NCBI GenBank assembly: GCA_964016885.1 | Contig: OZ024741.1 | Coordinates: forward strand, 208,258,001-208,322,000 | DNA length: 64,000 bases | DNA from: Eledone cirrhosa | Lineage: Eukaryota | Direction of reading: 5' to 3' | In this document: positions 31,437-63,167 of the stretch, piece by piece | Layout: each line of letters starts with the position of its first letter | Position numbering within the stretch: the first letter of the stretch is position 1 | Program-made: the position numbers and the translations under genes | Notes under the pieces: generated by a model | What the model saw: the letters and a program-made list of their open reading frames with translations, nothing else | Database searches by the model: none | Told to the model about the DNA's origin: nothing

Positions 31437-31514
<78 letters not shown>

Positions 31515-32762
31515 TTATTAAAATAACAGATTAAAGTTTAAGCAAAGAATCGCTGCTTTCACACTTAACGCGATCTATATATATATAGTAATAATAATAA
31601 AATTGAAGACTAAAATCCAAAGAGGGCTCGATAAGGAAAATATATATTAAATATATATATATAGTAATAATAATAAATTTGAAGGCTAAAATCCAAAGAG
31701 GGCTCGATAAGGATAAATATATATCAAATATATAAGAACCGTAGAGCAAATATTTATTAAAATAACAGATTAAAGTTTAAGCAAAGAATCGCTGCTTTCA
31801 CACTTAACGGGATCTTCTGAAACTAACAAAGTCAATCTGTAAACGCAGAACTGGATATTTCAAAAAACGTTGCAACCGGAGGAAGCCAGGAAGACGATAC
31901 TTTGGTTCGTGGTAACGTTCGCTGGCAAAGAACGGGAAAAAACGAATAATACGTCATTAATAGGAGCGGAGAAAAACAATTACGTGCAAGGACAGAACCA
32001 CGTTTATGGTATAAAAGAGGTCGTAGACTAATGTTCTCTATGTGGTGCATAGAGACGTTCTCTGGCAATGAAGGAAAAAACGAAGATAATAAGTCATATG
32101 TGGAGAGTGGACAACAATAGCACGCAAAGACAAAACCACGTAAATGGTATAGCAGAAGTCGTAGACTAAAATTCTAACTAGGAGACCAAATGAATCTCCG
32201 CTACAGAGTTAAGAACAAAGTAAATAAATACAATACAGAAGTAATAGAAACAAATAAATACATACACGCAAACAGATACGTACATACACAAGCATACGCA
32301 AAACCTTACCATAGGTATACAAAACCACGCACATATAAATATGTGTGTATGTGTATGCTTGTGTACAAATAAATAAACAAATAAATAAATAATTACATAA
32401 ACGTATATAAGTAAATAAATACGTATATAACAAGCGCACACACATACCTACATATAAATACACGAATGTTCGGAGACGTAAGTCAACTAAAACAAGAAGT
32501 AGACATATACACACACCCACCATACGTACGAACCTGAATACTCACGCAGACGCAAAACTCCCGTATACACTTAGCCAAACCCTAAATACCAGAATATGTA
32601 AAAATTATACGCCAAACAGTCAAATATACGTACGAGAAGGTATACATACCTTCACAAAACATACGGGTAATATATACTTACCTATGCAAATAAGTAAAGG
32701 AATAAACAAAACATATACTTAGCTACCACATCAAGACGTAAAATATCCACGTATAGATCGTG

Positions 32763-34861
32763 CTATCCGTTAGGGTATAACGTGGGGCTGTAATACAGGA
32801 AAGTTTTGTGCAATTTATGTTTACAAACCGAAATTGCCTCAGATTTTTTGTTTAAGATGTGGTCTGTGGCGTGGAGTATTTCCAGGATTTCCTCATCGGC
32901 GCAGAGGTCACATGGTCTTTTATTTCCGTTATACGATCTAGCCCTAGCTAGGATCTCCCAGTGTAACTTATATTGAGTGTGGTTGTCTTTTAGACTCCAG
33001 ATATAAGCTGAAAGTGACGTCATATTCCTTCTTAGAGAGTAACGAAAAGAATGGGTATGCATGTAAAGACGCTGCTTGAAACTATTGGCGGTTAACCCTA
33101 TGTAGGCCCTACGGGACGTGGGTGTTACAACTTACGGATAGGGGGCAATCAGCCCGATTCCTACAATTACAGTTAGTACTAACTACAGGGTTGCACGTGT
33201 TCCTACGGCTAGGTAGTTTAGCTAAATTTGAAGCTGTGATGTTATGTGCAAGGTTAGGAGTCGTAGAGTAAGAAATTTTAATAGTATTTCTATTAAAAAT
33301 TTTACTATATTTATGTGTAGGGGGAAAATGCTTCGTAATAAGGGAAAGAAAGATCTTAGCTAATGGTGTGGCCACCTCCATATTATATGGTGGGTTAAAC
33401 CAACAAATGCGACGGGATCTATTTCTTCTAGGTCTATTTTCGTACTCTGTATATGCTACCTTATCGACAAATCCACTTCGAGCAAGAGCTTCATTGTAAT
33501 AAGTGGAATGGTCGTTGAAAATGCGCTCGTTGGTGGAAAGACGGGAAAGCCTCAACGAAACGTTTTTTACCAGGTTCTTGGTTATGCTGGCAGGATGGTT
33601 GGAATGCTTACTTATGTAATTAAGCGTATCATTCGGCTTTCTATACGGGTAATACAACCCATTCAATAAATTGAGGGTAACGTCGAGGTAATTAACGACC
33701 GAGAGATTGGCCTCAACCTGTATAGAGAGGTTGAAGCCTTTAAAGAAGGCTGTGAGTTCTTTTCTGAACTTGTCGCAAGCACGAGGTCCGCACTTAGTCA
33801 TGGTCAAAAGACCATCGTCACGGTACAAACCACCGCCCGCGTTGGGGAATTCGTCCTTGATAGAGAAAAGAAGGAAAAGGCCAATAAGATCAGTAACCTC
33901 CGCAGAGTCACTGGCGCCCATACTCACGCCGAATGGGGGTACTATTGGAATTTTTAATCCAAATAGAGTCGTCGAAATTAATCACCGACTTTCGGGCATT
34001 AAGGATGACATCAACTTCGAAATCCTTAACCACTGTGAGTGTTTTAGCGAAATTGATAGCTCTAAGGAGAAGTGGTAAAGTGATGGAAGAGTAGTAATTG
34101 TTGATGTCGAATTGGATAAAACGGCAATGTTCCTTGTTACATATGCCGTTGAACCAATCAATCACCGCGAAAGAATTGTTCCACAGTGCGAGAGGGGCCA
34201 AACTTCTAATTTCAGGTATAATTCTATCAAGAATCGTTTTACTAAGTCTACCTAAATCGGACTTCGTAGGGTTAATAAGCCGAATAGAGGGGTTGTTCGG
34301 AAAATTGGATTTGTGAACCTTCAGGGTAAAGTGGGGAGAGATAGGGTCCAGAGGTTCGGTCCGGTCCAGGATGTTGAGATCAGATGTGATTTTAAACCCA
34401 GCATCGTTGATTTCATTGATGACACACCTATTAGTTTTACGGTAATCCTTAGCTACAGCATTATGTAGTAGTTGATGGTAAGTACTGCGCTCCACTTGAT
34501 ATAGGTTGCCAGTTTTGTCGGAATGGACGTGCACGGCATTAGAATCCTTAATAGAACGAATTCTATTCTTCAGGTCTTGCTGGAAGGAATTGCTCCTATT
34601 CCGAAGTTTGATACTCCGAATGAGTTCCAAGACATCATTTTCGAAGGGTAGCAATGCTGGGTTCCATGGAGGGTTATTATAGGTTTTAAATCCAAATTTA
34701 TCCTGTTTGTTGTCTGCTTTTCGCGGATTATCGAAATAAAAGGCACGCCAACGCAACCTTTTAATGAACGCGTCTGTTTTCTGTATCAGGAGTTTTAGGT
34801 ATGTTTTCCTGCTTGGTACGGGTATGTTCTTTGTAGAAATATTCAGATGTTGTTTCTGCAT
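32763..34861 (-). pseudogene. PLE1 RT + C-terminal GIY-YIG endonuclease; two frameshifts (~33920, ~33110)
   Basis: KNIPVPS..FIKRLRWRAFYF..FGFKT, FIQFDINNYYSSI, MGASDSAEV, LYRDDGL, WFNPPY, CNCR..CPL..C, TSLSAYIWSLK, CDLC. Confidence 0.9.
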
Positions 34862-35014
34862 GATGAATATAAGTCAGTACAGTGCTCAACCGAAGGAGCC
34901 AAATAGTAATAATAATAAAATTGAAGACTAAAATCCAAAGAGGGCTCGATAAGGAAAATATATATCAAATATATAAGAACCGTAGAGCAAATATTTATTA
35001 AAATAACAGATTAA

Positions 35015-35065
35015 AGTTTAAGCAAAGAATCGCTGCTTTCACCCTTAACGGGATCTTCTGAAACT
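35015..35065 (-). ncRNA. Hammerhead ribozyme with variant core CAGAAGA (copies at 31774-31824 and 18855-18905)
   Basis: AGUUU-CAGAAGA-UCCCguuaaGGGU-GAAA-GCAG..UUGC-UU|AAACU. Confidence 0.75.
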
Positions 35066-35449
35066 AACAAAGTCAATCTGTAAACGCAGAACTGGATATT
35101 TCAAAAAACGTTGCAACCGGAGGAAGACAGGAAGACGATACTTTGGTTCATGGTGACGTTCGTTGGCAAAGAACGGGAAAAAACGAATAATACGTCATTA
35201 ATAGGAGTGGAGAAAAACAATTACGCGCAAAGACAGAACCACGTTTATGGTATAAAAGAGGTCGTAGACTAATGTTCTCTTAGGTGGTGCATAGAGACGT
35301 TCTCTGGCAATGAACGAAAAAACGAAGATAATAAGTCATATGTGGAGCGTGGACAACAATAGCACGCAAAGACAAAACCACGTAAGGGTGAAAGCAGCGA
35401 TTCTTTGCTTAAACTTTAATCTGTTATTTTAATAAATATATATATATAT

Positions 35450-37245: not shown

Positions 37246-37249
37246 TATA

Positions 37250-37343
<94 letters not shown>

Positions 37344-37513
37344 TCCATCAATGACGGTAAAGAATTAATTGTGTTGTGAAGGTTCTACAGATACAATACA
37401 CCAATATATTCAGTGGTCCACTGAAATTGACTCAGCCAGTATCATAGAAGACAACCATCAACATATCATCCCTGACATAACTGTCGGCTCACCTGACAAC
37501 ATAACGACAATTA

Positions 37514-37857: not shown

Positions 37858-37941
<84 letters not shown>

Positions 37942-40010: not shown

Positions 40011-40200
40011 GGCGGTGGATTGGCAGTATCGGTAGAGGGTCGCACGCCATGCTTTCCAGCACAGTTACGTCCCTTTACGGACTGAGTTCAAATCCCGCCG
40101 AGGTTAAATTTGCCTTTCATCCTTACGGGGTCGATAAAATAAAGTACCAGTAATACACTGGGATAATTGCTGGCATTGTGCCAAAAAGTAGAAACAGTTA
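40011..40200 (+). mobile_element. Full-length SINE (Nin/Deu-like family); others at 44093-44225(+), 46301-46488(-), 46533-46720(-), 47111-47300(+), 47314-47502(+), 58470-58640(-)
   Basis: GGCGGTGGATTGGCAG..CGG A-box region, GAGTTCAAATCC B box, shared core and tail. Confidence 0.9.
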
Positions 40201-40378
40201 TTACAAGCGTTGCCTTAAAAAAATATTAAACTATACCTGAAAAATGCGCAAGCTCAAAAGAGCCACAACATGTTATAATAAACCTTCAAAAGTGAGGGAC
40301 TAGAGTTGTTGCTCAAAAATAGTGTAATCATTATCTATCGTACACTCTGTGGCATGCTTTTATAAAAAAGAGACTCAT

Positions 40379-41843: not shown

Positions 41844-42439
41844 TGTTATATTTTATATATATATATATATATAGTATACTCAGCTGAAAATGAGTACTAG
41901 CAATAGCTGGGCCTTTAGTCTGCAATGAACTGGCGTCCTTTCCAGAGGGAAGTTTGTACTCTCAGTCACTTCACGCCATGAAACCGGGATAAGCACCGGC
42001 CAAATAAGCTTTCTGGCTTAAAACAGACTTTAGACTTATTTATAGTAGAATGGAATGATATTCTGTTAAATCGAACTACGCTTTAAGTAAGTAAATTTAT
42101 ACATCATGTAAAGAGGGTAGTTGATTTTATTTAACTGAGAAATCTCTATGAATGGATTAGCTCTGCTTCATTCGGTACAAATTTAGCGTGGGTACAAATT
42201 TAGCGTAGGTTACAATAAATATACGTACTCATAAAGTTATGAATTTTGTTTTGCTGTGAAATTAGTATCACAGGCATTTTCGACAGCTTGGGTTCAGGAT
42301 CGATCCGCCCATTTTCAGATGTATTTGCTAGACTGAAATACATAATAATAATGACTGTATATATTTATTCATAATCACAGTGCTTTAGTGTACAGTACCA
42401 ATTATTGCGTTAATCATAAGTTGTGTTTACACTTTAGCA

Positions 42440-43200
42440 AGGCAAGACGGGCAGATGATATAAACATCGTAGTTAAGACACCCCCACTAGAGAACAGTCA
42501 GGAACTAGAGAAAAACACAATGGAAAGCATCCAGCAAATAGCAAACTCCATCCACCAGAGCATTAGAGTTACTATAGACTACTCAAGTAAACACCCCAAC
42601 CATCGATTACCTGTACTAGACACAGAGCTCTGGTTAGATACCATTAACAACAAAAAACAAATCCTCCATTCCCATTATGCCAAACCCATGACTTCCAAAC
42701 ATCTGATCCACCGAAACTCGGCCGTTTCGGACCATACCAAAATCAACATACTGATTGCGGATTTGGTACGGGTGATGAGAAATGTGTCCCGCATGTGCAA
42801 CCCCGAAGAACTAGAGAGACACATACAACACTTCATCCACCGTATGCAGTTCTCTGGCTACAATCAGAGAGATAAAATCAGAGTGTATAGAGGAGCCAGA
42901 ACCAAATGGGAAAAAATGGTAAATAATGACATAAATGAGAGCAAATTTTGGAATAGAATAGAAAGAACTAGGAACAAGGCTAATAGAATACACTCATTGT
43001 ATGATAGCAATAAATACCAGAGTGTAATGTTCATCGATACAACCCCTAACGTTGCCTTTCATCTCACAGATGTGAGAAAAACCACAGACCCTCCATCTCA
43101 ACTCTACTTTTGAAAAGCAGAAGCACTGTGAAACCGGTAAAGGAACCAAATGAATATATATATTTTTTTTTTAAATAAGACTCCAGTTGCATTTTCGATT
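42440..43200 (+). mobile_element. PLE fragment from a non-Naiad lineage (RT motif E + thumb) joined to a pLTR with HHR at 43107-43142
   Basis: RLPVLDTELW..HYAKPMTS..HRNSAVSDHTKINIL..RVMRN..MQFSGY; UUGAAAA-GCAG/CUGU-GAAA-CCGG-UA. Confidence 0.8.
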
Positions 43201-43242: not shown

Positions 43243-43247
<5 letters not shown>

Positions 43248-43432
43248 AACCAGTAAGACCCCGACAGCTGAGCTCAAGCCGTTTCGACGGCTAATTCTGA
43301 GAATTAGCCGTCGAAACGGCTTGAGCTCAGCTGTCGGGGTCTTACTGGTTCCTATTACCCACTCTACTACCTCAAGTATTGAGTACTTTGGTGCGTTATG
43401 GTCCACCTGGTTCCTTACCACATTTCCTTCGT
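43243..43432 (+). mobile_element. Perfect palindromic pLTR remnant (43243-43355) plus tail
   Basis: Half HHR GAAA-CGGCU/AGCUG-UC; tail hairpin 43361-43384. Confidence 0.82.
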
Positions 43433-43867
43433 TATATATATATATATATATATATTTAGAAATACACAGATACATGCGGACACACACATATACATGAATG
43501 CATCCGCACCCAACCGTGAGTTAAGGGTGCCAACTTCACCGATGTTGCTCAATGAATGACTGGGACAGACCAATCCGGTTGAATTAGACTGAACCAGTAT
43601 CAGAGTTAAAAATACATTATGAAGAGAGAAGAAACATTTAGATATAATTAGTAATAAAATGTATCATACCTAAACTGCTCCTAGATTCCTCGACTACGTA
43701 GTTTCGTGGCATAAACAAAAACAATACATCATAAAGATATAGAGTCCTTGCGAGGTCTGCCGACTTATCAAGAGGATACCTCATTTTACTAGTCTCAAGA
43801 ACGCGTCTACACGACGTGAGAAAGAATCCCAAAAGGCGGAGGGGGAGATAGTCACGCGATATAACGG

Positions 43868-43990
43868 TCGAGAAACAGAGCTAAGCCTCTTATAACCCCG
43901 AAGAAAATACCACGGAGGCGGAGGGGGTATTTATATCCGCCTCCGTGGTATTTTCTTCGGGGTTATAAGAGGCTTAGCTCTGTTTCTCGA
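43868..43990. repeat. Inverted repeat, ~55-bp perfect arms
   Basis: Directly visible; followed by ACTC..TAGAGT at 44002-44021. Confidence 0.8.
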
Positions 43991-44387: not shown

Positions 44388-44778
44388 ATATGTATGTAAA
44401 AGGTAAACAGAAATAACAACACAATCGGTATAGTATATGGAAGGAATATATTAGGTTAACGTTTGAAATAGCAGGAAGAGGGTCTTAACGTTTTGGACGC
44501 TAGTCCTTCATCAGAAGAATGAATGAGAAAATAAGATAGATTGAAGGGAGAGATGTCAACATCAGTGGACCTGTTATTTTTATCTAAAGACAATTTTTCA
44601 ATTTCCAACCCACCCGTCCCTTCAATCTATCTTATTTCTCATTCTTTCTTCTGATGAAGGACTAGCGTCCGAAACATTAAGACCCCCCTTCCTGCTATTT
44701 CAAGCGTTAACCTAATATATTCCTTCCATATACTGTACCCATTGTGTTGTTATTTCTGTTTACCTTTTACATACATAT
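44388..44778. mobile_element. Palindromic pLTR pair (~160-bp arms) with minimal HHR at 44647-44682 (+)
   Basis: UCUU-CUGAUGA-aGGAC/GUCC-GAAAC(G/A)UU-AAGA. Confidence 0.85.
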
Positions 44779-45957: not shown

Positions 45958-45962
<5 letters not shown>

Positions 45963-46258
45963 AAACGAAAAATCAGTGATGCATCTGAACTCAATTTATT
46001 GTGTGTTGCAATTGTATCGCCGGCGGACAGCTCGAGACGTGATCATTGTGTGGGTCTGTCTGATTCTGGACCCACAGGTTCGCAGGTCCAAAATCAGACA
46101 GATCCACACAATGATCACGTCTCGAACTGTCCGCCGGCGACACAGTTGTAACACACAATAAATTGAGTTCAGATGCATCACTGATTTTTCGTTTTCTATT
46201 ATATCATACTCTGCTCAGAGAGTGCTCAACCGGCATACCGCCTATTGAAGCATCAGAC
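45958..46258 (+). mobile_element. Palindromic remnant (~115-bp arms, 45958-46199) plus tail
   Basis: IR with AATAAA in the right arm and hairpin 46208-46223; no canonical HHR core. Confidence 0.7.
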
Positions 46259-46488
46259 ACACACACACATATATATATATATATACAGATATAGATATAT
46301 AATTGTTTCTACTTTAGGCTCAAGGCCAGCAATTACCCAGTGCATTACTGGTACTTTATTTTATCGACCCCGTAAGGATGAAAGGCAAAGTCAACCTCGG
46401 CGGGATTTGAACTCAGATCGTAAAGGGACGTAACTATGCTGGAAAGCATGGCGTCCGACCCTCTACCGATACTGCCAATCCACCGCCC

Positions 46489-46537
<49 letters not shown>

Positions 46538-46727
46538 GTTTCTACTTTAGGCACAAGGCCAGCAATTATCCAGTACATTACTGGTACTTTATTTTATCGA
46601 CCCCGTAAGGATGAAAGGCAAAGTCAACCTTGGCGGGATTTGAATTCAGACCGTAAAGGGACGTAACTATGCTAGAAAGCATGGCGTCCAACCTTCTACC
46701 GATACTGCCAATTCACCGCCATATATA

Positions 46728-47532: not shown

Positions 47533-50500
47533 ATAAATAAAAATAAATAAAAAGAACCTGGAAACCATCCTTATAACAAATGAGGAATTACAGGAAGCAA
47601 AGAAGATGGTGACGAAAACCGGACACCGAGCAATCTGCAAGGCAGCCGAAAGATGTTTCGAAACTCAACAGCACTGTACGGTCACGTACCGTACAGTAAG
47701 CACAAAATCACGTAGGGTTGAAAGAGCCACAGAGGCTCAAATACAAAAACCTTAGGGTCTGTGTGACAGCGGAAAACGCATATCACCCGAGGCAAGAAAT
47801 ATGCCACCGTAGACGTGCTTTTTGCCACACCCCAGGAGGCAAAGGCACAATCCTTAGTGACCCTAAGGAGCGAGGAAATGGTGTTGGTGCCCTCCTACTG
47901 GGGGCAAAAGATCGTCAGGGTTAAACTCACCCGAGTCCCCTACCCCCCACCCCCGGGATGACCCCATCTTGGCTGGCCGCATCTGTCCTCGTCGGAATCG
48001 AGGACAAAACAACTGTACTGCAAGTACAAAAAAAGGTACGAGAAGATTGGGTCGGCGCCTCCATTGAGATGTTAATTCAAACCAACCAGGAGTGCATCGA
48101 AGCTATCCCGGATGTGATAGACTTCGATGACGGCACTCAACTTCCCATAAGTGTTGAGGCAAACGCCCGAAATGCTTTCGCTGTGGGTCGAAGACTCACC
48201 TCAGGGCCTTCTGCTATGATAAGACCCTGAGAAAGGAGAAAACCCCCTCCTTCCGAAACCGGCTCCACTGCTACCAGAAACAGGACAGGCGGCAAGCAGG
48301 AAGGATAGGTCCGTGGCACCCATACCCACGCCACGGAAATCAAGAACAGCAGCAGCAGTGGAAGTATTAACAACAACAACAGCAGCAGCAGTGGAAGTAT
48401 TAACAACAACAACAGCAGCAGCAGTGGTAGTATTAACAACAACAACAGTAATACCAACTGCAGCTGCAACAGACTCCACTGCAACCATCACCAACAAGAA
48501 CAAGTGAAAGAGTGGAGCTGGTACCACTCCCTGACCTCACAGAATCGGACATGGAGTGTGAGGTGGGAGAGGGATGGCAAAAGGTCGCAAGAAGGGACAA
48601 ACGCAGAAACAGCGCATCGTCGCCTTCAAAAATGGAGGGAAGAAATGAAAAAAGGGTAAAGGCTACTGCAAAGAGACTTACAGCAGCAACACCACGAAAC
48701 ACCATCACCACCCACACTAGCACTACCATCACAAGCGGCGGCAACCCTACCGCCAACAACAACAACACCTTCAACACCACCACCACAAGCACCAACATCG
48801 CAAACACAACAACAAAACACACACACCCACCAACAACGACTAGAAAATAGCAGAACCACACCCCACGCCAGAAAAGGAAATTCACAGCAATAAACACACA
48901 CAACAAGAAACTAATGACTTACATAATTGAACACACAGACATTTCACAGGCACGACTACATAATACCAGCACCAATCAAAACACCAACGAACATAAGTAA
49001 GAATATCACAGAAACAATACACAAACATTAAAATGAAATTCCCCAACGCAGTTGGTGATTTCAGAGACCTAGGAGGGACACTCAACCGGAGAGTATATTC
49101 GGGCATACTCACAGAAGAGCCAACGACCAGCCGAAGGGACGGTTCAACGGTCCCTTCACCAGACGATCAAGGTAAAGGATGCTTTCTCACTTGCCCCGTT
49201 CCTCACCCAACATGGCCGTATTCAGGATCGGAAGTGTAAACGTGCGTGGCTTGAGTTCGGTTTCGAAGCAGGGTCACTTGCTTAACGACCTCAGGTCACT
49301 AAACATAGATGTGGTGGCCATCACGAGACGAGAATCTCCGAAACGCAAGCCTTCGCACCGATCTTCGACGGTTACGAGGTATATGCATCTCCGAGCCGTC
49401 CGGGAACGGGGGGGGGGGGAGCGGAGTGGCTGTGTTGTTTCGGAAAGGCTTGGGTCTCGCCATACGGACCATCTTCCTGGACACAGAAGGTAAGTTGGTG
49501 GTGCTGGACGCAAGCGGCACCGAAGGCAACGCTTTCAGGCCAGTAGCCGTCTACGCCCCGACAGGGACAGGACGGCCAGATTTCTTTAGACGTCTAGAGA
49601 CCTTTCTTAGAACGTCCCGCTCTTTAGTGTTAGTGGGCGACTGCAACTGTATCTTGGATGCACGCTGGGATTGTGTGGGGCTAGTGGATAGGGGAGGAGG
49701 GTGCAAGAGCCTCACCAGCCTGCTCAGACGTTTTGAACTGTCTGACAGGTATCGACTGGATCACCCGAATGTGCCAATGTGGAGATGGACAAACCGCATC
49801 GGGTCATCCAGATCGTATCTCGATAGGGTATTCTGCAGAGAACTAGATAAGGCTAGTATAAGTTGTCCACAATTTAAAATAGTCGACTACACAGACCATA
49901 AATTTATGATCTGTGAGATCGAAATAGACAGACTCCATAGATAAGTGCCTGGTTACTGGAAGCTGAACGCGTCTTTCCCGGCGAGCAAAGCCTACAGAGA
50001 CCGGATTTACGTATTAGCGTATTAGTTAAGCGGGCGTATTACAGATTAGCGTATTAGTTAAGCGGGCGTTGACGGGAGCGGTCGTCAACAACAGGTGGTG
50101 GTTCGCCCTGAAAAGGGCAATTAAATTAGAGTCGATTAGGTTTAGCAAAGGACTAGTGATAGAGGAAAATAGAGTAGAGGGAGAGCTAGTCAGAAAGCTA
50201 GAAGAGGCGTTTAGGACAGGCATCGCAACCAACATGCTTGCGGCGAGATTGGCACTCGACCAATTCTTCAACGCAAAACACGAAGGCTGCGTTGTCAGAG
50301 CAAGAGCGCGTGCTCTGAAACATGAGGGGACAAAAGCCGTCCAATGGGCCCGGGTGGCAGAGGCGCAACGTGGCAATAAAGCCATATTTCGGTCTTTGTC
50401 TGACCAAAACAGGTGCGTGCTGCTTGAATCCGAGCAGATGTGTGAAGCTTTTCAGCAGCACTTTGCTGAACTGTTCGGGAGCAGCGGCGGGCCGGATCGG

Positions 50501-52976
50501 GGTATGGACTTCAGTGCATACCTCGATGGACTGCCTCGGCTCTCGACGACCGCAGCACAGTGTTGCGAAAAGCCAATAAGAGCCAGTGAAATACGGGAAG
50601 CGATGACTAGATGCACGAGGGGTAAATCGCCAGGTTTGGATGGTCTGCCCTACGAGCTTTATGCCTTTATGCCAGACTTGTTCGGTAACCTCTTAACAGA
50701 CATCTACTGCAACTGGCAGCAGAATGGGAGCATTCTTAGTTTTGTGAGCCGGGGAGAGATGGCGCTGCTGAGAAAAGACCCGAACAAGGGGGATGTTATC
50801 GATAACTTCAGGCCCATAATCCTGCTAAACGCAGAGTTCAAGATATGCGACAAGGTGTTAGCAACGATGTTGGCGCTTGTCGTCAAGGTCTGGTGGGAGA
50901 GGCACAGACATGCGCCATTCCGGACAGATACATACACGACAACCTCCACCTCATGCGATACATCATAGAGAGGGTGGTTTAGGAACCTGGCACGGGTGGG
51001 GCCCTGATCAACGTGGATCAATCCAAAGCATTCGATAGGGTCGACCATCGGTACCTGGCGGCGGTCCTCGAAGCAGCCGGTTTCGGACCCGTTTTCAGGG
51101 ATTGGATCGCTGCGATGTACAGCGACATCTGCTCAGTCGTGAGGGTGAACGGTCACAACAGTTCAGCATCATGCGCTCGGTCCGCCAGGGTTGTCCCCTC
51201 TCGTCCCTCTTGTACGTATTGGCTCTCGAGCCGTTACTGCACAAACTGGGGGCGATGAGGGGCGTCCCACGCGAACTAGGATGCGGGAAATCCGAATCGG
51301 CTTGCGCCGACGACGTCACCGTGGTGGTGTCGAGCACCAGACACGTCCAGATGCTCGGCACCGCTCTCAAGGAATACGAAGCGGTGACAGGAGCAAAGAT
51401 AAACCAGGAAAAGTCGGTGGGCTTGCAGCTCGGCACCTGGAGAGGAAAGTCCATGCCGTCCGACAGCGTCGTGCGGCGTTGGACGGACGGACCAGTTAAA
51501 TTGCTCGGGGTCTGGTTTGGACCGGACATTCAGATGGAGAAAAACTGGAACGAGGTGACGAGCAGGGTGGCCTTCCTCACCCAGAAATGGGCCGAGAGGC
51601 GCTGTCCCTGAAAGGCCAGGCGGAGGTGGCGAATACGTACATCGAATCCGTCATCTACTACCGCCTCACCGTCGTCCCTTGCCCCGGCCCAACTCTCACC
51701 AAAATGGAACGTCTCCTCTTCCGCTTTTTGTGGAAGGGACGCGCTCCCATGGTCAGACGATCCATCTGCTGTCAACACCCATTGCGTGGAGGACTGGGCA
51801 TGCCATGGCTGATGATGCGCAAACATGCGCTGAGGCTGCGACATCTCTGGTGCTTCCTTGACGGTGAACAGGTGTGGTCGCCGTTCGCCAGACACGTTTT
51901 TCCACAGCTCGTCTCTTTGACGGGACGGAGCTGCAGTCCTGGGTCAGGAATAGACCGAGGGATAGCGCTTGGAAACTGGAATGTCTCCAGGCGCTCACTG
52001 CCCTCTGCCAGCTGGGCACCAGTATCGGTGGAACATCGACCTCGGCGTTCTATAGAGGACTAGTGGGGGAGGGGAGGACGCCGTTCGTGGAGAGATCCTG
52101 GGCATCGAAGAAGATCAGCTGTTTGCTCTCTTCCGGAGAACTTTCAGCCGAGGGCCTATGGATAACTTCCAAACATCCCTGGCCTGGCAGTGCTACCGGG
52201 GAGCGTTGCCGGTTCGAGATAAGCTCTACAGGCACGGAAGTGACGTCAGCCGAGCCTGTCTGAGATGCGCGCAGAGCGACGAAATCGTTGTGCACGCACT
52301 CGTTCAGTGCCCGAGCATTGCTGACTTGTGGGGCTATGTCGAACAGTTGCTGTCGCGTGTAGGACTGATCCGGTTATGGACTGAGTCCATTGTGCTGATG
52401 GTCTCGCCGTCTTCGTTCAAGGAGGAAGGGCAGGCGGTTTTCATCTGCCTGGTGGCCATGGCGAAAGAGATTGTGTGGTGGACAAGGTTGAAAGGGTTAA
52501 AGACAAACACTTTCCTCTTCGGCGAATCCCTAATTAACTTTTTCAAGTTTCACTTGAAGAGGAAAATCAGGGTAGAGAGGCAAGTGCTACCTTCTAGAAA
52601 GTTTGTTGAAAGGTGGGTGAATGTAGCGAGAATGGTCCGAATGAACGGGACCGCTCTGAATATACGCTTGTAGTTTGAGAAATGGAAAAATTGAGAGAGG
52701 GCACTTGCCCTGGTGGTCAGGGTGGCCTTGATCTTTTGTGCGGTTTTCGCCACGAGTAACCCTCTGATGTTTCCCCCCTATAGGGGAATTTTTCATTGTT
52801 TCATTTTTCATTTTTATTGTTTATATATATATTTTTTTTCTATGTCTTTTTTTTCTTTTTTATATAAATAATAAAATTCTTTACACGCACAAAACCCACA
52901 TCGTACCGTCCTGTACCGTTCTGTGACATCTGTAATGTTTTTCTTGATGTCAGCCCTTGTGGCCAATAAAGAAATC
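47533..52976 (+). mobile_element. 5'-truncated L1-Tx1-like LINE, copy D (family A), (TTA)n tail; ORF2 49212-52673 disrupted
   Basis: ORF1 nearly colinear with 2565-4045; ORF2 APE/RT motifs; CLRCAQSDEIVVHALVQC. Confidence 0.92.
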
Positions 52977-53008
52977 ATTATTATTATTATTATTATTTAT
53001 ATATATAT

Positions 53009-54116: not shown

Positions 54117-54422
54117 CAATGATAATAAATAAATGATAACTATATTTATAAAACCATATTTATTTTATTATATATATTTCAAGGGTACCAAAAGACTTTT
54201 GTACGCTTTCTTCAGAAAAAATACAAAATTTGTTTCATAAATAGAGACATACCCAGGAAAATCATACCTTATCAGTTGGATATTCTCTGGATAGTGGAAA
54301 TGTATTAGGGATTTTTCAAACTTATGGGTGAATATGCAAATGAATATGTAAATAATTGAAAAACAACCGTTTATTTAAACGACTATGGAGAGAAAAAAGA
54401 GAGAAGAGAAGAAGGACAAAAT

Positions 54423-54509
<87 letters not shown>

Positions 54510-57031
54510 AGAAGGAAAAAACCAAAGATGAATAAAAAAAAAAATTTAAAAACGTTAACTTGAGGGAAATATATTCGGACAATTACGTATGTTTATATGT
54601 ACATATATATCTTAAAATTATGGGTATTTATATTAATTGTTAAAATTTGTTTATAATATAATATTTTTCATTCGTTTATAAGTAGATAAATAAATAAATA
54701 TATAAATAGATAGGTATATCATGTTATAGATATTTGTTCAAATGAGTTATGAGGGATATTGGTTTTGTATTTTATGTAAATAAACGTATTCAAAATTGAG
54801 AATAATTTAAAATTAAATTAAATTAAATTAAATTAAGTGCGTTAAGTAAGAATATATATATTTATATGATTTAAAAGGGAAGATAAGGAAAAAACTCCGG
54901 TTTTATTTATTTATTTGTTAGTGTGAAACTATTTAGTCAAAATAAGTATGGATGTTTAAGATACATTTAGCTAGAATCAGTTAGTGGTTATTAATCTATT
55001 GAAAAATATTGAAAAAATATTGAGAAAATATTGAAAAGATATGGAAAAAATATTGAAAAAGTATATTGAAAAAATATATTGAAAAAAATATATTAAAAAA
55101 TTTTGAAAAGAATATTGAAAAAATTTTTTTTTTTATTTTAAATCTTGAGAAAAAATCTTTTGAAAAAGCTTTTGAGAAAAATTTTTAAAATTTCATTTCA
55201 AAATAAAATTTTTTTTATGAGATAAGTAATTTTTAAAGAAATAAAAAATTATTCAAATTAAAAAATAAAAAAAAATTAGAATTATATACGTATATATTAT
55301 ATGTACATTTTAAAGAAGTGGAAGTACAACAAATATTAGAGATATTATGATTTAGAGATATCAATATATTAAAACTAAATAGATGAGATTAATAGGAATA
55401 TTATAATTATAATTAAAAGTTCTGAATAGTTCTGAATGTTGAATTTTGGCGGTGCAACTTCTACAGAATTTAAAAGTGGCTGGAATAACCACAATTTTTC
55501 TTTCCGAATATTTGATAAAAAATCTTCAACTTCTCTTTCAAACCTGATATGGAACTTAAAATGCAAGAATATAGACTATTCATTAGCTTGGGAAACAGCC
55601 GCATACCGAAACACAGCTCTATCCAGATTCTACAAATTGTGTATTGAGGAATTTTTTTATATACTTAACTGTAAAAACTCAATTAATCTAAGAACGAATT
55701 TATTTAATTCTTGTAGACATCGCCAGAATTCAACATTCAGAACTATATATAACTTATAATTATACTTATAATATTCCTATTAATCTCATCTACTTGGTTT
55801 AATATATTGATAGCTCTAAATCATAATATCTCTAACAATTTTCATATAATATATACGTATATAATTCTAATATTTAAACAAATTTTTAATTTGAATAATT
55901 TTTTATTTCTTTAAAAATTACTTATCACATAAAAAATTTTTTTGAAATGATTTTTATTTTATTTTTCTCAAAAATTTTTTTTTCATTTTTCTCAACATTT
56001 TTAAACATTTTATTTTTTTATTTTTTCAATATTCTTTTCAATATTTTTTAATATATTTTTTTCAATATATTTTTTCAATATATTTTTTCAATATTTTTTC
56101 AATATCTTTTCAATAACTTTTCAATATGTTTTCAATAGATTAATAACCATAACTGATTCTGGCTAAATGTATCTTAAACATCCATACTTATTTTGACTAA
56201 ATAGTTTCACACTAACAAATAAATAAATAAAACCGGAGTTTTTTCCTGATCTTCCCTTTTAAATCATATAAATATATATATTCTTACTTAACTCACTTAA
56301 TTTAATTTAATTTAATTTAATTCGAAATTATTCTCAATTTTAAATACATATTTATTTACATAAAATACAAAACCAATATCCTCATAACTCATTTGAACAA
56401 ATATCTATAACATGATATACCTATCTATTTATTTATTTATTTATTTATCTACTTATAAATGAATGAAAAATATTATATTATAAACAAATTTTAAACAATT
56501 AATATTAAGATATATATTTACATATAAACATACGTAATTGTCCGAATATATTTACCTCAAATTAACGTTATATGATTTTTTTTATTCATCTTCGGTTTTT
56601 TCCTTCTTCTCTCTGTCTCTCTCTCTCCCTCCCTATCTCTCTCTATCTCTATCTCTCTCACACTATTTTGTCCTTCTTCTCTTCTCTCTTCTTTCTCTCC
56701 ATAGTCGTTTAAATAAACGGTTGTTTTTCAATTATGTATATATTCATTTGCATTCACCCATAAGTTTGAAAAATCCCTAATACATTTCCACTATCCAGAG
56801 AATATCCAACTGATAAGGTATGATTTTCCTGGGTATGTCTCTTAAATTTTGTATTTTATTTGAAGAAAGCGTACGAAAGTCTTTTGGTACCCTTGAAATA
56901 TATATAATAAAATAAATATGGTTTTATAAATATAGTTTCCATTTATTTAATATCATTGAATATTTACTCCATGAATCTGTTGAGTGCTCTAAATCAGTTA
57001 TAAACATTTATATTTATATTTGTCGGATTTC

Positions 57032-57036
<5 letters not shown>
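54117..57036 (+). mobile_element. Large palindromic Naiad-type PLE remnant (~1.2-1.3 kb arms; spacer encodes GIY-YIG C-terminus 55436-55759); HHRs at 54162-54232(-) and 56853-56913(+)
   Basis: Arms are reverse complements; 'GATSTEFK..NNHNFSFR..STSLSNLIWNLK..KLCIEE..NSCRH'. Confidence 0.88.
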
Positions 57037-57073
<37 letters not shown>

Positions 57074-57075
57074 TA

Positions 57076-57462
57076 TACGATATTAGATAAATGGAAACTA
57101 TATTTATAAAACCATATTTATTTCATTATATATATTTCAGGGATATCATATTAACAATATGTTATGCCTTCTTCAGACAAAATACAATATAGACAGTTTT
57201 ATAGATAAATAGATTTGACATACCGTTCAACATCGACTTGTATTTGAAAAAGTTGATTTGGCAGTATAAAACTGTCTATATTGTATTTTGTCTGAAGAAG
57301 GCATAACATATTGTTAATATGATATCCCTGAAATATATATAATGAAATAAATATGGTTTTATAAATATAGTTTCCATTTATCTAATATCGTAAATATACT
57401 CCAAATACTTGTTGAGTGCTTTTATATCAGTTATAAATATTTACTAGTTGTAACCCAACAAT
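57076..57462 (+). mobile_element. Palindromic pLTR remnant (57076-57392) with HHR 57285-57348 and tail
   Basis: AUUUUGU-CUGAAGA-stem II-GAAA-UAUAUA-UA|AUGAAAU; related to the 46728 and 54117 units. Confidence 0.87.
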
Positions 57463-57478
57463 TTAAATATAACTTTCC

Positions 57479-57537
<59 letters not shown>

Positions 57538-57546
<9 letters not shown>

Positions 57547-58392
57547 GACGTAAAATAAGAAAATTATAAAAATTAACTTACTTACTAAAATTTCACTCCA
57601 ACTAATTAGTTTCTGAAAGGGAATAAACATGGTTTCCAAATGGAAAGCATGGAGAAGCCGTTTCGTCATCAGGAAGTCTGTCCACGCATCGCCTGGTAAC
57701 TTAGCTGAGAGCAGACTTCCAGATGACGAAACAGCTTCGCCATGTTTTCCATTTGGAAACCATATTTATTCCCTTTCAGAAACTAATTAGTTGGAGTAAA
57801 ATTTTAGTAAGTAAGTTAATTTTTATAATTTTCTTATTTTACGTCTTTCATATAATTGTTCTGCATCCCCTTGCATTGAACCACAAAGTTGCTAAGACAA
57901 AACCTATGTATTTGCTAGCATAGGTATACATCTGTATATATATGTTGGTAGATATACTAATTCTTTATAATTATCTCTAAATTATTTTGTTGAGCAAAAA
58001 TTTGCCAAAACTGCTACTATAGTTCATAGTAATGGCTCGGCTACTGTCTTTTTAACACCCCACTCCTCACTGATTAACCTCGATGTCACGTGATTGATTC
58101 TTTTGAATTTGCCACCGGCCAAGTAGGCAGTGATTTTTTCAATGTCTTGGAATTTAGTCCACGCTTGCTTTTTTCCATCCACTGAATTATTTTTGTATAA
58201 GTTCCCTGTGTTCACGCATCGCCTGGTAACTTAGCTGAGAACAGACTTCCTGATGACGAAACGGCTTCTCCATGCTTTCCATTTGGAAACCATGTTTATT
58301 CCTTTTCAGAAACTAATTAGTTTGAGTGAAATTTTAGTAAGTTAATTTTTATAATTTTCTTATTTTACGTCTTTCATATAATTGTTCTGCAT

Positions 58393-58394
<2 letters not shown>
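57538..58394 (+). mobile_element. PLE-type remnant: inverted pair (57538-57854) plus third direct copy (58213-58394)
   Basis: Three copies of a ~145-180-bp unit containing CTGATGACGAAAC; tail hairpin 57858-57881. Confidence 0.78.
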
Positions 58395-58452
<58 letters not shown>

Positions 58453-59091
58453 AGATGAATAATTTGGATATAATTGTTTCTACTTTTGGCTCAAGGCCAG
58501 CAATTACCCAGTGCTTTACTGGTACTTTATTTTATCAACCCTGTAAGGATGAAAGGCAAAGTTAACCTCGCCAGGATTGGAACTTAGAATGGCAAGGGCC
58601 GTAATTCTATGCGTCTGACCCTCTACCGATACTGTCAACCAAATGCGAAGAAGTTCGATATATTAACCACTTAGGGAAGAAAATAGTATAATTGTTTTTT
58701 TAAAATCAATTGAAAATCAAAGAGGTACTTCAAGTCATTTGTTTAATGTCTAAAACGAAAGCTTCGTCAGGTATTAATTCAGGATTTAGATGATAGAGTC
58801 CCAAAGGAACACAAAAATCATAGTTAATAGAGTAAATAAATTGAAGAGGTTTTTAAACTAAAAAATTCAAGAAATACAGATAAAGATATTTATCTCAGGG
58901 GATGTGGAAACAAAGCAGTTGCTTAATTTTGTTAAATAAACATGAATTCTTTTCAGCAATAAAAAATAATAAGGATTTATGAAGATAGTTTTTAAAACAA
59001 GAATATTATTTTTATCCGGTAAAGCATATGCGGACCATTTGATTAATTGTCTATGTAAGTATTTTTCTTTTCAGTAGCAAGCCATTAATTA

Positions 59092-59176
<85 letters not shown>

Positions 59177-59866
59177 TCTCCACTATATATATATACATTC
59201 TCCATATATATATATATAACACTTCTCCATTCTTTCACAAATAGAAAACTAAGGCACTCCACTTCGCTCGCGGACTACATCACATCACTAAAGGACTTAA
59301 ACATCAGCTTCTCCACGCACTGGGAGATTGTCGGTAGGGCTGCACCGTACAACTTCAAGAGGAAATGCGATCTTTGCCTCATGGAGCTCTACCACATCAT
59401 AACTGCACCCCACGAGCTCATCAACAGCAGAGCTGAAACAGCGATAAGTTATACACATCGCTTAAAAATATACTTCTTCAGATGGGTTAAGGATGAGGAG
59501 TGAAACCGTGCACCGGATCTCCCTGCAGCAAGTCTTAACACACCGGCGGGCAGGCGCTGCAAAATAACACCCAGGAAACAATCCTTGCATACCAGACCCA
59601 GCCTCAAACGACTCAGACAAACAGATGCAGCAAAAAGAAAAAAAAACTCTCAAAATAAGCGTTGATTACATGCGTATCGACAATGGTAAGGTTGTAACCT
59701 CATCTCGTAGCAGATAAACAAATTTGTCCGGGAAAGACTGCCCTAACACCGGCCAGAATTACCTCCCTTAACCTGCTGCAAAATCAAAACAAGCTATGAA
59801 CCTTAACGTGGATTTAACCCCAAAAACTCTTTCCGAGCAATGTAAGGAACACTTTTGATTATTTAT

Positions 59867-59906
59867 GCCCTTGAGAAGCCCAACTGGGCGAAACGTACGT
59901 AGGTGC
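59867..59906 (+). ncRNA. Minimal hammerhead ribozyme, U3-A8 variant (second copy 63031-63070)
   Basis: GCCC-UUGAGAA-GCCC/GGGC-GAAA-CGUACG-UA|GGUGC. Confidence 0.85.
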
Positions 59907-60166
59907 TGTTTTAAATAAACATGTTTTAACGGTCTATTCTCCGATTTTTTACTTTCCCACGTGCTTACGCTCTGCTAACTCAATATTAACTAAATATTAA
60001 CACTTCGAATATTTAATACTGCCGGCACTAGTATCGAGCACCTTTGGCATACGCTACTTGGAAAATAACTATATGTAACACCTACCCTCCCCTTTTTTCT
60101 CTCTCTCGATACGTAAATACTGTATTACCGTGCTCCTTTGTAGAGCATCTCGCCTTATTTGCCATT

Positions 60167-62902
60167 ATGTTGGAGAACCAGCCGTTACCTATGTCTCTCA
60201 AGTGTATCCCCTTACCCAGCAGAAAAACCTACCTTAAACTGCTTATAGACGCTACTAACTCGTTTATACGGAGAGTCAGATGGAAGGCCTACCACCTGGA
60301 TGAGAACACCCGTAACCTTCTTGAACCCAAAGAGAGGTATGGCTTCAAAACATACCGAAACCCACCGCACAACACCTTACTGGACTCCTTTGAAGAGGAC
60401 CTGCTGAAAATGATCAAAAACGTTAAGTTCAGAAAGAAACACCAATGCAGCAATCCATTCTTAACGTCCCTTGATACACTAATAACTAAGATCAAGAATG
60501 ACCCGCACCTCTTCGTCACCTCCGACAAAACCAAAAAGCTGTACAAGATGGACGCGAGTAAGTATAAAAAATTCATCTATAAGGAACTACACAAACACTA
60601 CAAAAAGACACCCTCTAGTACCCTAAATGTCATAAATAGAGTAGGGAAGGATATAGTCACCAGCTTAGAAATAGAAAAGCACACTAACCCGTACGTCCCT
60701 CTGACGCCTAAATTCTCTCTTAAGGATCACAAATATGACTTTAATGAAAGCCCCTCTATTAGACTAATATGCCCCTCTACATCAGATATAGGTAAGATTA
60801 GTAAAGTGATTCTCGACAGAGTACGACTGGAGCTTAATAGAAAGACTAAGGTCTGCCTCTGGGGCAACACCGACCAGGTCATAAATTGGTTCACCGAGTT
60901 GCCGGATAAAGCCACCCTGAAATTCATCCAGTTTGACATAGATAGTTACTACGCCTCTATCTCCCCCATACTCTTAATTAAGGCACTTATCTTAGCTAAA
61001 TCTAACACTAACCTCACTAAAAAAGAAATAGACATAATTCTAGCGGCGCGTAGAACCATTATCCAGTTCGAAGGCTCCCACTGGACCAGAACCAACCGTC
61101 CTGATAACTTCGATGTCACGATGGGGTTCAGTGACTCAGCGCAAGCAACTGACCTGGTCGGGATATACCTCCTACATAAGCTTAGGGAAGAGATACCGGC
61201 CCTACAAGGAGGTGTATATAGGGACGACGCCCTGTTTACCGTTAGGAACCATAGCCCCCGTAGGATAGAGAACCTTAACAAACATATACACAGGTTCTTC
61301 AAGTCATACGGCCTATCCGTAACTATGGACCTCAACCACAGGGTTGTCAACTTCCTGGACGTGACCCTGGAGTTGAGTACGGGCTTATACAAGCCATACC
61401 ATAAGCCTGGAGAGTGCCTCTCTTATATTAATTATGCCTCCAACCACCCTAAGTAAACTCTCAACTCCATAGTCTATAGTATCTCACATAGAATCTCGAG
61501 GCTATCCGCCAATGAGGATATCTTCAACCAAGCGGCAGATTACTACAATAGGGCCTTGATAAGCGCCGGCTTTAACCGAGGAATTTCCTACATCCCTAAC
61601 GCTAGCTCTAGAACCCCCCCCCCCTCTAATAAAACGAACGTTATAGTGAGCTATACCTATAACCGATCACGCGGCGACCTCGTTGAAGTCGATTATAATA
61701 GAATAGATAACCGCATTAAAGATCACGACCCCGGCGACGGTGACCACTGTAGATTACACTAACTATTCCCCTATTACAAAACCAACAAAGGCGACGGCCT
61801 ACTACCAACGCCTTACAACCATCATCTTCCTGTACATAAACATGGAAGAGATAGGAAGAGGACCCGAGCATAAAGTGAAAGGGGCACCGAACGGGCGACT
61901 GCGCATTAACACATAAGAGCGGTCACCTAGATGGAACCACCCGTAGCAAACGTACAAGGACACGTAATCGCCACCGTAACGTCCTATGGTTCCACCTCCT
62001 CCCCTACTCTCGGAGTGTGGCCTCCAACATACCCCGGATGTTCTTCGAAGCCTTAGAGAAGTACTTCCCGCCCAACCATAAGTATAGAAAAATTCTTAAT
62101 AGGAACAATATAAAAATATCCTTCTCTACTACTCCTAACCTAGCAGACATCATAGGAACAACGAACCGCAGTAAGATCACCAAGACACAGCACCTCGACA
62201 CAGACGCACCTACACCTGACAATAACTATATCAGCCTTAACAACTCCCTGGCAGCATCCAATAGTGTTGGCAACGGCATCCGCAGACGCAACAAGCATAA
62301 CCGCGAAATGACTGGGGAACATGCAGGACATGACGTGCGGAATAACAATCGCACCACCCCCCGTGCTGTGGGTTGTAATGGTGCTAACGACAGCTGCGGT
62401 AGCGTAGGTAACAACGTAGGCAGCAACAATGATAGCCTTACCGTCGGAAATAGACGGAACCGCGACAGAAATTTCAACTGCCGCGACAGAGGACGCTGCG
62501 CCCTTAGAGGATACTGCCTGACTGATAGGGTTATATATATAGATGCACTATTACTAGCCACAATAGCGTTAAACATTATATAGGGGCTACCTCCGGCCCG
62601 TTCAAAATTAGGTTTCGGCACATCTCCACTCTTTCACAAATAGAAAACTAAGGCACTCCACTTCGCTCGCGGACTACATCACATCACTAAAGGATTTAAA
62701 CATCAGCTTCTCCACGCACTTGGAGATTGTCGGCAGGGCTGCACCGTACAACTTCAAGAGGAAATGCGATCTTTGCCTCATGGAGCTCTACCACATCATA
62801 ACTGCACCCCACGAGCTCATCAACAGCAGAGCTGAAACAGCGATAAGTTATACACATCGCTTAAAAATATCCTTCTTCAGATGGGTTAAGGATGAGGAGT
62901 GA
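60167..62902 (+). pseudogene. PLE2 RT + GIY-YIG ORF; premature stop at 61454 and later frameshifts
   Basis: KCIPLPSRKTYLK..RRVRWKAY..YGFKT, FIQFDIDSYYASI, FDVTMGFSDSA, VYRDDAL, NCRDRGRCALRGYC, CDLCLME. Confidence 0.9.
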
Positions 62903-63167
62903 AACCGTGCAACGGATCTCCCTGCAACAAGTCTTAACACCCCGGCGGGCAGGCGCTGCAAAATCAAAACAAGCTATTTAACCCCCAAAACTCTTTCCGA
63001 GCAATGTAAGGAACACTTTTGATTATTTATGCCCTTGAGAAGCCCAACTGGGCGAAACGTACGTAGGTGCTGTTTTAAATAAACATGTTTTAACGGTCTA
63101 TTCTCCGATTTCTTACTTTCCCACGTGCTATATATATATATATATTATATATAATCTATTGATGTTC

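Follow-up and report, generated by a model that had tools for sequence, protein, structure and literature searches.

In Eledone cirrhosa, the insertions of two Penelope-like elements (PLEs) and of several related families end at two sites, each about 6 nucleotides (nt) upstream of one of two tandem hairpins that share a bulged motif. We analysed a window of 64,000 nt from the 3.0-Gb genome of this animal (assembly GCA_964016885.1, contig OZ024741.1, positions 208,258,001 to 208,322,000, forward strand), which carries the two elements, here PLE1 and PLE2, together with shorter insertions of further families (P29, P43, P44, P46, P57 and P58). The upstream site, A, lies before hairpin 1, the downstream site, B, before hairpin 2, and the interval between them forms an optional tail; insertions with two inverted arms combine one end of each type. 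It is very probable that the hairpins set these insertion ends, and likely that in PLEs of the Hydra clade the reverse transcriptase (RT)-endonuclease binds each hairpin and starts target-primed reverse transcription (TPRT) there. On balance we also favour a coupled version, whereby two active sites seated on the two hairpins are primed from opposite (TA)n strands. Its fullest form, a programmed twin priming in which one RNA presents both docking hairpins to an RT-endonuclease dimer that primes from opposite (TA)n strands about 6 nt upstream of each, is put forward tentatively.

Twin hairpins and two insertion ends in PLE1 and PLE2

The initial annotation of the window had described tandem hairpins in both full elements, and these are present in each, the second at 34884-34899 in PLE1 and at 60132-60146 in PLE2. 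The features on which the argument is built are as follows.

31661..35382, minus strand: PLE1, a Hydra-clade element with 5' pseudo-long terminal repeat (pLTR), open reading frame (ORF), C-terminal endonuclease (EN) and a 3' pLTR ending at site B
34991, minus strand: site A of PLE1 (last base at maximal extension)
34944..34988, minus strand: hairpin 1 of PLE1, GCUC..UC-GAGC, with a second copy at 31747-31702
34903, minus strand: site B of PLE1, giving an A-to-B tail of 88 nt
34884..34899, minus strand: hairpin 2 of PLE1, GCUC-C(UUCG)G-UU-GAGC, of which folding yields the outer 4-bp stem only
35383..35439, plus strand: inverted short arm of PLE1, ending at site A, whose partner is the long arm ending at B (31661); locus L001
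31511..31575, minus strand: short piece of PLE1 that meets (TA)n at site A
31585..31639, minus strand: short piece of the PLE1 tail that meets (TA)n at site B
35007..35080, minus strand: predicted hammerhead-like fold (type I) in PLE1, its core a variant (U4 to A), read by eye
59220..63129, plus strand: PLE2, a Hydra-clade element with the 3' part of the EN inside its 5' pLTR and a 3' pLTR ending near site A at 63129
59969..60039, plus strand: hairpin 1 of PLE2, with the modal family end 6 nt upstream
60132..60146, plus strand: hairpin 2 of PLE2, with the family site B 6-11 nt upstream and a tail of ~160 nt

All four junctions of PLE1 with (TA)n that had been described were found, at positions within a few bases of those given. 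The junction at 31511 and that of the inverted piece 35383-35439 close with ..AATAAATAT at site A, 2 nt before hairpin 1, and the other two (31585 and 31661) with ..TTACTAT at site B, 3 nt before hairpin 2 (34899-34884). The PLE2 end at 63129 does lie 3 nt before the equivalent of hairpin 59969-60039, as had been stated, but is atypical for its family, in which 26 of 52 sampled ends stop 6 nt before hairpin 1 and a single one stops 3 nt before. A further 19 of the 52 share one alignment position, the family's own site B; with this site and its second hairpin, PLE2 shows that PLE1 is not alone in having two sites.

The outer stem I of the hammerhead-like fold of PLE1 was recovered by folding, and the cut predicted from its sequence falls near 35020, 29 nt upstream of site A. 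Several full ORFs (L314, L358, L361 (1034)) start a short way upstream of hairpin 2, after a TA-rich stretch; the 5' boundary of these copies thus lies near site B, and published Hydra consensi likewise begin at a hairpin.

Genomic map of insertion ends

Ends were sampled through exact anchors placed upstream of them, taking the first matches along one contig (C1) and 97 further stretches picked by the proximity of opposite-strand matches, and each stretch was aligned to a natural run-on copy (for P46, to a tailed copy). Loci chosen for running on (L001-L030, L251-L300) and matches with fewer than 230 nt downstream were excluded from end counts, and the end classes were windows 21 and 25 nt wide. 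The first end classifier over-extended into TA runs, and final counts are those of a revised classifier; exact-match anchors favour young copies.

Of 418 distinct 3' ends sampled from seven families, 398 fell at A (n = 227) or B (n = 171), with 16 running on and 4 elsewhere, a pattern far from a uniform spread of junctions along the pLTR. The sharp peaks expected by the initial annotation were therefore recovered, including two for PLE1, but its proposal of two alternative start sites in PLE1 holds in part only: all seven families have two peaks, and the two sites are paired within inverted insertions instead of being mere alternatives. In 338 of 402 sampled ends a TA/CA-type run, not poly(A), followed within 4 nt. 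Single-armed copies of both types, A-ended and B-ended, were common.

Exact patterns for PLE1 applied genome-wide gave 37,984 anchors before A: 18,224 of them stop exactly at A, 10,598 continue into hairpin 1, and about a quarter are variants that exact patterns miss. Before B there were 18,221 anchors, with 14,622 stopping exactly at B and 478 continuing past it. Contigs from public sequencing runs also showed loose (AT)n ends at 34903 and 34991 (106 and 140 in run X1, which may be the assembly's own source; 1 and 3 in run X4, from another organism and study with few contigs). For P44, site A was placed from the motif before any mapping, and array ends were then located at unit positions 288 and 452-455, in agreement with that placement.

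Distance to the hairpin and TA microhomology

The AU-rich linker between end and hairpin leaves each junction defined as a range of positions, not as a point. Of 344 such junction intervals, 72% include a distance of 6 nt, the peak value (5 nt, 58%; 7 nt, 57%; 2 nt, 6%). The spread of 2-11 nt given by the initial annotation is thus mostly junction ambiguity, although its placement of the ends near the hairpin stands, with a common distance of ~6 nt.

Most junctions carry 1-5 nt of TA microhomology, and pairing of AU-rich RNA with the (TA)n primer could in principle place the ends. Hairpin 1 of PLE1 contains the longest alternating TA stretches of the element (7 and 8 nt), which are unused, the 2 of 65 ends first assigned to them being A ends on reading, and a 9-nt alternating run in the P58 tail is also unused. 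At site A of PLE2 the homology is 0-1 nt, and the P43 region holds no alternating TA run of at least 4 nt, with ends that are still sharp. Since longer TA runs in the tails go unused, microhomology was rejected as the cause of the ends, and, with TA/CA-type runs in place of poly(A) after most junctions, AT microhomology or polyadenylation fails as an explanation.

Conservation and folding of the hairpin motif

Downstream of both sites the motif reads RCUC-[inner helix]-U(U/C/A)-GAGY, with a 2-nt 3' bulge beginning with U, and is usually followed by AC or GC. The inner helices are free in length (5 to ~65 nt) and variable in sequence while their pairing is kept. Hairpin 1 of P58 (GUUC/GAAC) represents a two-sided change, and P44 and hairpin 2 of P58 have a mismatched outer pair. 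In a blind check, search patterns from which the motif was absent recovered hairpin 2 in P29 and P57: in both families GCTCC emerged, 6-7 nt beyond site B, as the leading continuation.

To extend the comparison, 77 metagenome loci were collected with a Hydra-type alignment query, of which 51 had at least 170 nt upstream of the ORF start and 42 were non-redundant; a metagenome search with the single PLE1 protein as query confirmed nothing. Among the 42 Hydra-type 5' regions, 27 held two hairpins, 13 one and 2 none, against two hairpins in 1 of 42 reverse strands, 1 of 199 ORF windows and 75 of 4,200 shuffles. Hairpin spacing was 55-91 nt in 25 of the 27 two-hairpin regions and ~80-165 nt in the E. 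cirrhosa genome. Of 20 alignment stops listed on metagenome contigs, 9 lay 1-6 nt before a hairpin, the other 11 being stops within or close to the hammerhead, points of divergence between families or breaks of other kinds. The motif was also recognized by eye in the published consensi Hydra-1_Ajap, Hydra-2_Ajap and Hydra-2_Amil (coral, sea cucumber), and in Hydra-1_Ajap it occurs twice in tandem before the ORF (PMC8557442, file S7).

An alignment-free count found the first inner pair formed in 67 of 70 hairpins and each of the next two pairs in 50 of 70, values reached in none of 2,000 partner shuffles. Slid controls were 23-59% paired, compared with 98% for the inner pairs. Covariation in the inner helices of 49 hairpins amounted to 34 two-sided changes versus 10.9 in shuffles (0 of 500 shuffles reached 34), as scored on a structure that we specified, in which 20 of the 49 rows are gapped, and with locus relatedness remaining in the shuffles. 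Read in sense, the inner helices contained six G-U pairs against one A-C.

Candidate hammerhead cores of canonical type were found in P29, P57, P58 and 25 of the 42 metagenome regions, in 24 of these 25 at 42-67 nt before the first hairpin. Variant cores were read by eye in PLE1 (U4A; 35060-35054, minus strand), in PLE2 (U3-A8 type; 59870-59895, plus strand) and, again of U3-A8 type, upstream of a P43 copy (L141). An Rfam scan of the window returned no hammerhead or relevant family and only microRNA-type chance matches.

Pairing of the two ends in head-to-head insertions

Head-to-head pairs, defined by having no long TA run between the arms, were picked by proximity and blind to end type. Of 119 such pairs, 116 combined an A end with a B end, one was A+A (L389) and two were unclassified, while independence predicts about half A+B (p = 6e-31 for the 111 of 113 pairs of the first pass). 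The first classifier had given 111 of 118, and six of its seven exceptions were A+B on reading; five more P44 pairs, read by eye, were all A+B. Earlier accounts describe the tail as often present at one end only, the qualitative form of this rule (PMC8557442, PMC3846280).

Within the 116 A+B pairs, the A arm was longer in 15, the B arm in 18, and the two were within 30 nt of each other in 83, a few arm lengths being unreliable. Some differences reach kilobases, with A arms longer by up to ~2 kb (L417, L438). As the A arm is longer in 15 pairs, it is not always a copy-back of the B arm. The identity of arms within pairs exceeded that between pairs in PLE2 and P57, was uninformative in PLE1 and P29, and was low in P46 and P58.

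Clade assignment of PLE1 and PLE2

PLE1 and PLE2 are Hydra-clade PLEs on the domain order and motifs of their translated sequences. The ORF of PLE1 starts with an ATG at 34861, carries two frameshifts (~33940 and ~33110) and ends in a GIY-YIG-type EN (~33110-32770); its segment 33128-32784 matches residues 603-699 of a Hydra-type protein, P0004 (E 1e-22), and the same EN region of P0004 gave only a weak match to GIY-YIG (E 0.046). The PLE2 ORF runs from ~60167 and is interrupted by a stop and frameshifts, so that both window copies are broken, and its EN part follows the RT and also lies within its pLTRs. The motifs are RWR and SDKT in PLE1 and RWK and SDKT in PLE2. The PLE1 linker, read by eye, is CNCRNRADC (CxCx5C), and CDLC..E and N..CKH supply the CxxC and CxH next to the conserved E and N, whereas in PLE2 the first C of CxCx5C is replaced (by eye), and CCHH is absent from both. 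Identity to P0004-type proteins is 36-42%, and Pfam scans of the PLE ORF pieces gave no significant family. C-terminal EN, RWK/RWR, DKT, a CxCx5C linker and absence of CCHH are described for the Hydra clade (PMC8557442).

The initial annotation had called both elements full Naiads, a label that is wrong because in each the RT is followed by a GIY-YIG-type, C-terminal EN and accompanied by Hydra-clade motifs. Naiad identity was rejected on an EN that is not N-terminal and on DKT in place of the Naiad DKA.

Other families and features in the window

The short palindromes of the window are 5'-truncated head-to-head insertions of families other than PLE1 and PLE2, and two of the families, P44 and P58, are found as tandem units of 594 and 530 bp. 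The copies are as follows.

29722..29999: P29 palindrome; left arm up to A, right arm continuing past hairpin 1 (from 29918) as far as B
43246..43435: P43 palindrome, A and B ends; hairpin 1 at 43361-43384
43453..43990, minus strand: P44, a piece of the 594-bp tandem unit ending at its own site B (~43453); hairpin 1 at 43606-43547; no ORF noted, no scan for one having been made
45958..46258: P46 palindrome, A and B ends; hairpin 1 from 46208, with an internal deletion in the window copy
54119..57037: P57 long inverted insertion, A at 54119 and B near 57037; hairpin 1 at 56966-56985
57079..57481: P57 palindrome, A and B ends; hairpin 1 at 57398-57417
57544..58394: P58 inverted insertion of the 530-bp tandem unit, left arm ending at A; hairpin 1 (the GUUC/GAAC variant) at 57858-57881 and hairpin 2 at ~57974-57995

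The shorter arms of seven palindromes had been said to stop shortly before a hairpin. Six of the seven coordinates bear this out, at 3-14 nt before a motif hairpin: 29906 (hairpin from 29918), 43355 (43361), 46199 (46208, decayed), 56958 (56966), 57392 (57398) and 57854 (57858). The seventh, 43990, is not an end, because 25 of 25 genomic copies continue beyond it; it is an internal break of a short inverted P44 arm, and the true P44 ends lie elsewhere in its unit. The hairpin adjoining 43990 (44021-44002) reads as the motif on the opposite, minus strand, with a UUCG-type loop, and belongs to a piece of another family's tail that is joined to the truncated P44 arm.

Run-on copies of P29, P43 (L141) and P57 continue through hairpin 2 into a Hydra-type ORF. 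The run-on search for P46 gave no recurring continuation, and hairpin 2 was not found for this family; its site-B ends (L181-L199) are mostly followed by (AC)n, not by (TA)n as in the other families. Two more motif hairpins (ACTC..TA/TC-GAGT-GC) follow AT-rich linkers at 17258-17228 and 28326-28288 (both minus strand) and are probably tails of further families. No clear motif was seen by eye at the arm ends of the palindromes at 29454, 30377, 40376, 44399 and 46760. The palindrome at 44399-44767 has canonical hammerhead cores in both arms and a one-sided extension in which no motif was seen by eye, and is perhaps of another PLE clade with a different signal. A hammerhead-like core (CTGAAGAG..GAAA) and a short inverted arm occur in a fragment at 29220-29567 (minus strand).

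An abundant repeat of ~190-230 bp, which we take to be SINE-like (short interspersed element), occurs in direct, inverted and tandem arrangement (46269-46720, 47094-47509, 40011-40203, 30228-30333 and 58470-58638). Several decayed elements of LINE (long interspersed element) type, with an upstream ORF and an endonuclease-RT ORF, were recognized by eye from the ORF list at 2005-7680, 19851-27581 and 47552-52997. An RT-like fragment at 42355-43113 (plus strand), which presumably resembles the C-terminal region of Naiads, showed no similarity to P0004. Three peptide words from it had no match in the portion of the PMC8557442 supplement that was searched.

Proposed mechanism and alternative explanations

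The motif copies lie between the hammerhead-like motif and the ORF start, and the ends would be RT initiation points on the sense RNA, by analogy with in vitro data on a Poseidon element of the anole. Docking of the RT on the hairpin is in line with the internal initiation observed in vitro for that element (PMC11167929). Each hairpin may serve both for docking and as a ruler, the register being fine-tuned by 0-5 nt of pairing between the primer and the AU-rich linker. The two hairpins would be occupied by two RT active sites, likely of a dimer, that are primed by nicks on opposite (TA)n strands; the two cDNAs, joined at their truncated ends, would give a head-to-head insertion with a tail on one side only, the tail length would equal the hairpin spacing, and single-armed copies would arise if only one cDNA were fixed. 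A homodimer prediction for residues 1-480 of a Hydra-type protein scored 0.00 and is evidence neither way.

A long copy ending at B, such as PLE1, needs hairpin 2 downstream of the 3' untranslated region, so its template would be a tandem transcript or a hammerhead-cut circle. Locus L369 has two ORF starts behind identical 5' regions, and circular templates have been proposed (PMC4209133). Strict A+B pairing favours one RNA over two, and on this question the arm identities of PLE2 and P57 alone are suggestive.

Several observations weigh against docking at twin hairpins. The outer stem hardly varies, shows no covariation and could act through its sequence; from the hairpin alignment RNAalifold recovered the invariant 4-bp stem alone, again without covariation. 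Single hairpins fold weakly (z of -0.35 to -2.64 in eight of eight tested), and a relaxed form of the motif, with 25 matches in the window versus 7-20 in 20 shuffles, occurs at close to chance frequency. The case is one of position and cross-family conservation, not of any single hairpin. The distance is not constant: PLE2 site B lies mostly at 10-11 nt and P57 site B at 7-11, the P29 site A intervals centre later (7-14) and P46 site A is broad. Some of these exceptions may reflect subfamily differences from the one copy used as reference, and two P57 linker variants were seen in the run-on search for that family. The right end of the P58 copy at 58209-58394 falls ~10 nt inside the next hairpin 1. 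No inverted partner was seen for 76 of 150 scored ends, a number inflated by classification misses in a single-arm census that is noisy and was used qualitatively only. Near-equal arms are also expected from fold-back, and a single RNA, gene conversion and one active master copy cannot be told apart by arm identity. A search of public sequencing runs listed no RNA run holding the element, and the GCUC/GAGC motif was not seen by eye in the anole element (PMC11167929, in the sequence available there).

Docking signals used in sequence, rather than together, are an unlikely but coherent account. The hairpins would again be RT start signals, with the second end primed later, through a second nick or re-initiation, or made by copy-back that stops at hairpin 1. 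The predominance of near-equal arms agrees with this, as does the turn of all 32 P43 pairs near the hammerhead stem II hairpin, and self-priming has been proposed for PLE palindromes (PMC3846280). In the 15 pairs with the longer A arm, however, that arm holds sequence absent from the B arm and so cannot be a copy of the B cDNA; in addition, single-armed A-ended copies exist, and A and B share the ~6-nt geometry to the same motif.

We regard it as improbable that the motif is instead recognized as DNA, with the EN resolving a DNA intermediate at an inverted repeat or single-stranded hairpin by cuts ~6 nt away, staggered between the motifs. This was the earlier published reading of the tail (PMC8557442), and recognition of a plasmid by the Penelope EN reportedly required the tail region (Pyatkov 2004, cited in PMC11167929). 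Some outer stems are A-C or U-C in sense (P44, P58, L316), A-C being a G-T wobble on the opposite strand. The inner helices point the other way, as they vary in length yet remain paired and favour G-U over A-C in sense. Precise 3' ends with variable 5' ends fit TPRT, and the Poseidon tail boundaries coincided in vitro with RT start sites on sense RNA (PMC11167929).

Finally, it is most improbable, and largely refuted by the counts above, that ends form where AU-rich RNA pairs with the primer, or at a polyadenylation or ribozyme cut site, with the hairpins as bystanders (promoter or translation elements): an AATAAA lies just upstream of PLE1 site A and the hairpins just before the ATG, but runs of TA/CA type follow the junctions, the predicted hammerhead cut of PLE1 is ~30 nt removed from A, and the tandem units P44 and P58 retain both hairpins and both ends.

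Relation to known systems and implications

The nearest precedent is the Poseidon element PAc of Anolis carolinensis (Frangieh et al. 2024), for which internal RT initiation at two sites bounding the tail, nicking and extension of both target strands and a predicted dimer were reported (PMC11167929). Internal initiation at two sites that gives a tail is therefore already known in a Poseidon element. The Hydra-clade elements resemble PAc in having two fixed 3' ends that bound an optional tail, as seen in the end map, and PAc also has an AT-rich target, little or no primer homology and a requirement for RNA downstream of the start (PMC11167929). PAc differs in belonging to another clade, in having the sites inside the ORF and in a tail of 30-40 nt, against 55-165 nt here; its account, in the sections available, names an 'AC-rich stem loop' and mentions no duplicated hairpin, fixed distance or A+B pairing (PMC11167929). 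By eye, the PAc template of the Methods contains a possible 3'-bulged hairpin with a UACG loop at +121 to +147, directly after the main in vitro start window at +111-118 (PMC11167929).

With the Hydra clade of Craig et al. 2021, PLE1 and PLE2 share the domain order, RWK/RWR, DKT, linker and lack of CCHH, as well as (TA)n targeting, inverted 5'-truncated copies and a one-sided tail (PMC8557442). The pLTR hammerhead of that clade (PMC8557442) would correspond in PLE1 and PLE2 to the variant cores read by eye. Those authors ascribed a 30-40 bp tail to EN-mediated resolution; 'hairpin' is absent from their main text, and the twin motif is present in their consensi with no comment on it in the sections at hand (PMC8557442). 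Naiads likewise have pLTRs, tails, inverted copies and a (TA)n preference, but combine an N-terminal EN with the absence of canonical hammerheads (PMC8557442), the EN of PLE1 and PLE2 being C-terminal.

As with retrozymes and PLE hammerheads, there are tandem non-autonomous units that share PLE ends (P44 and P58), at 594 and 530 bp longer than the 170-400 nt of retrozymes (PMC4209133, PMC7229834), and a circular template has been proposed to explain partial tandems (bioRxiv 10.64898/2026.07.22.740005). The parts of that literature consulted describe no RT-recognition hairpin (PMC4209133, PMC7229834, bioRxiv 10.64898/2026.07.22.740005). No canonical hammerhead core was seen in the stretch upstream of P44.

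Twin priming in L1 elements offers a further comparison: two target nicks prime two cDNAs that are joined into an inverted insertion, with a variable second priming site and two non-overlapping parts. In the Hydra-clade elements neither start varies, and the upstream region copied is the same in both arms. A duplicated clade-wide hairpin, a ~6-nt distance and a counted A+B rule were not found in the literature searched, which did not cover older and subscription papers.

The results bear on two questions about the RTs of PLEs, which form the sister group of telomerase: how they select a template, and why they leave inverted insertions with a tail on one side. The one in vitro study that we found, that of PAc, gave start sites without a defined RNA signal (PMC11167929). 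The present finding offers a minimal, duplicated, clade-wide candidate signal together with a distance rule and a strict pairing rule. In practice, it serves the annotation of Hydra-clade ends and of their non-autonomous partners, in a genome with tens of thousands of copies (single exact anchors, 37,984 for PLE1 and 40,240 for P57). If the proposal is true, tail length, one-sided tails and head-to-head palindromes would all follow from hairpin spacing, and the hairpin, roughly 20 nt long, would provide the closest relatives of telomerase RT with a portable signal in cis.

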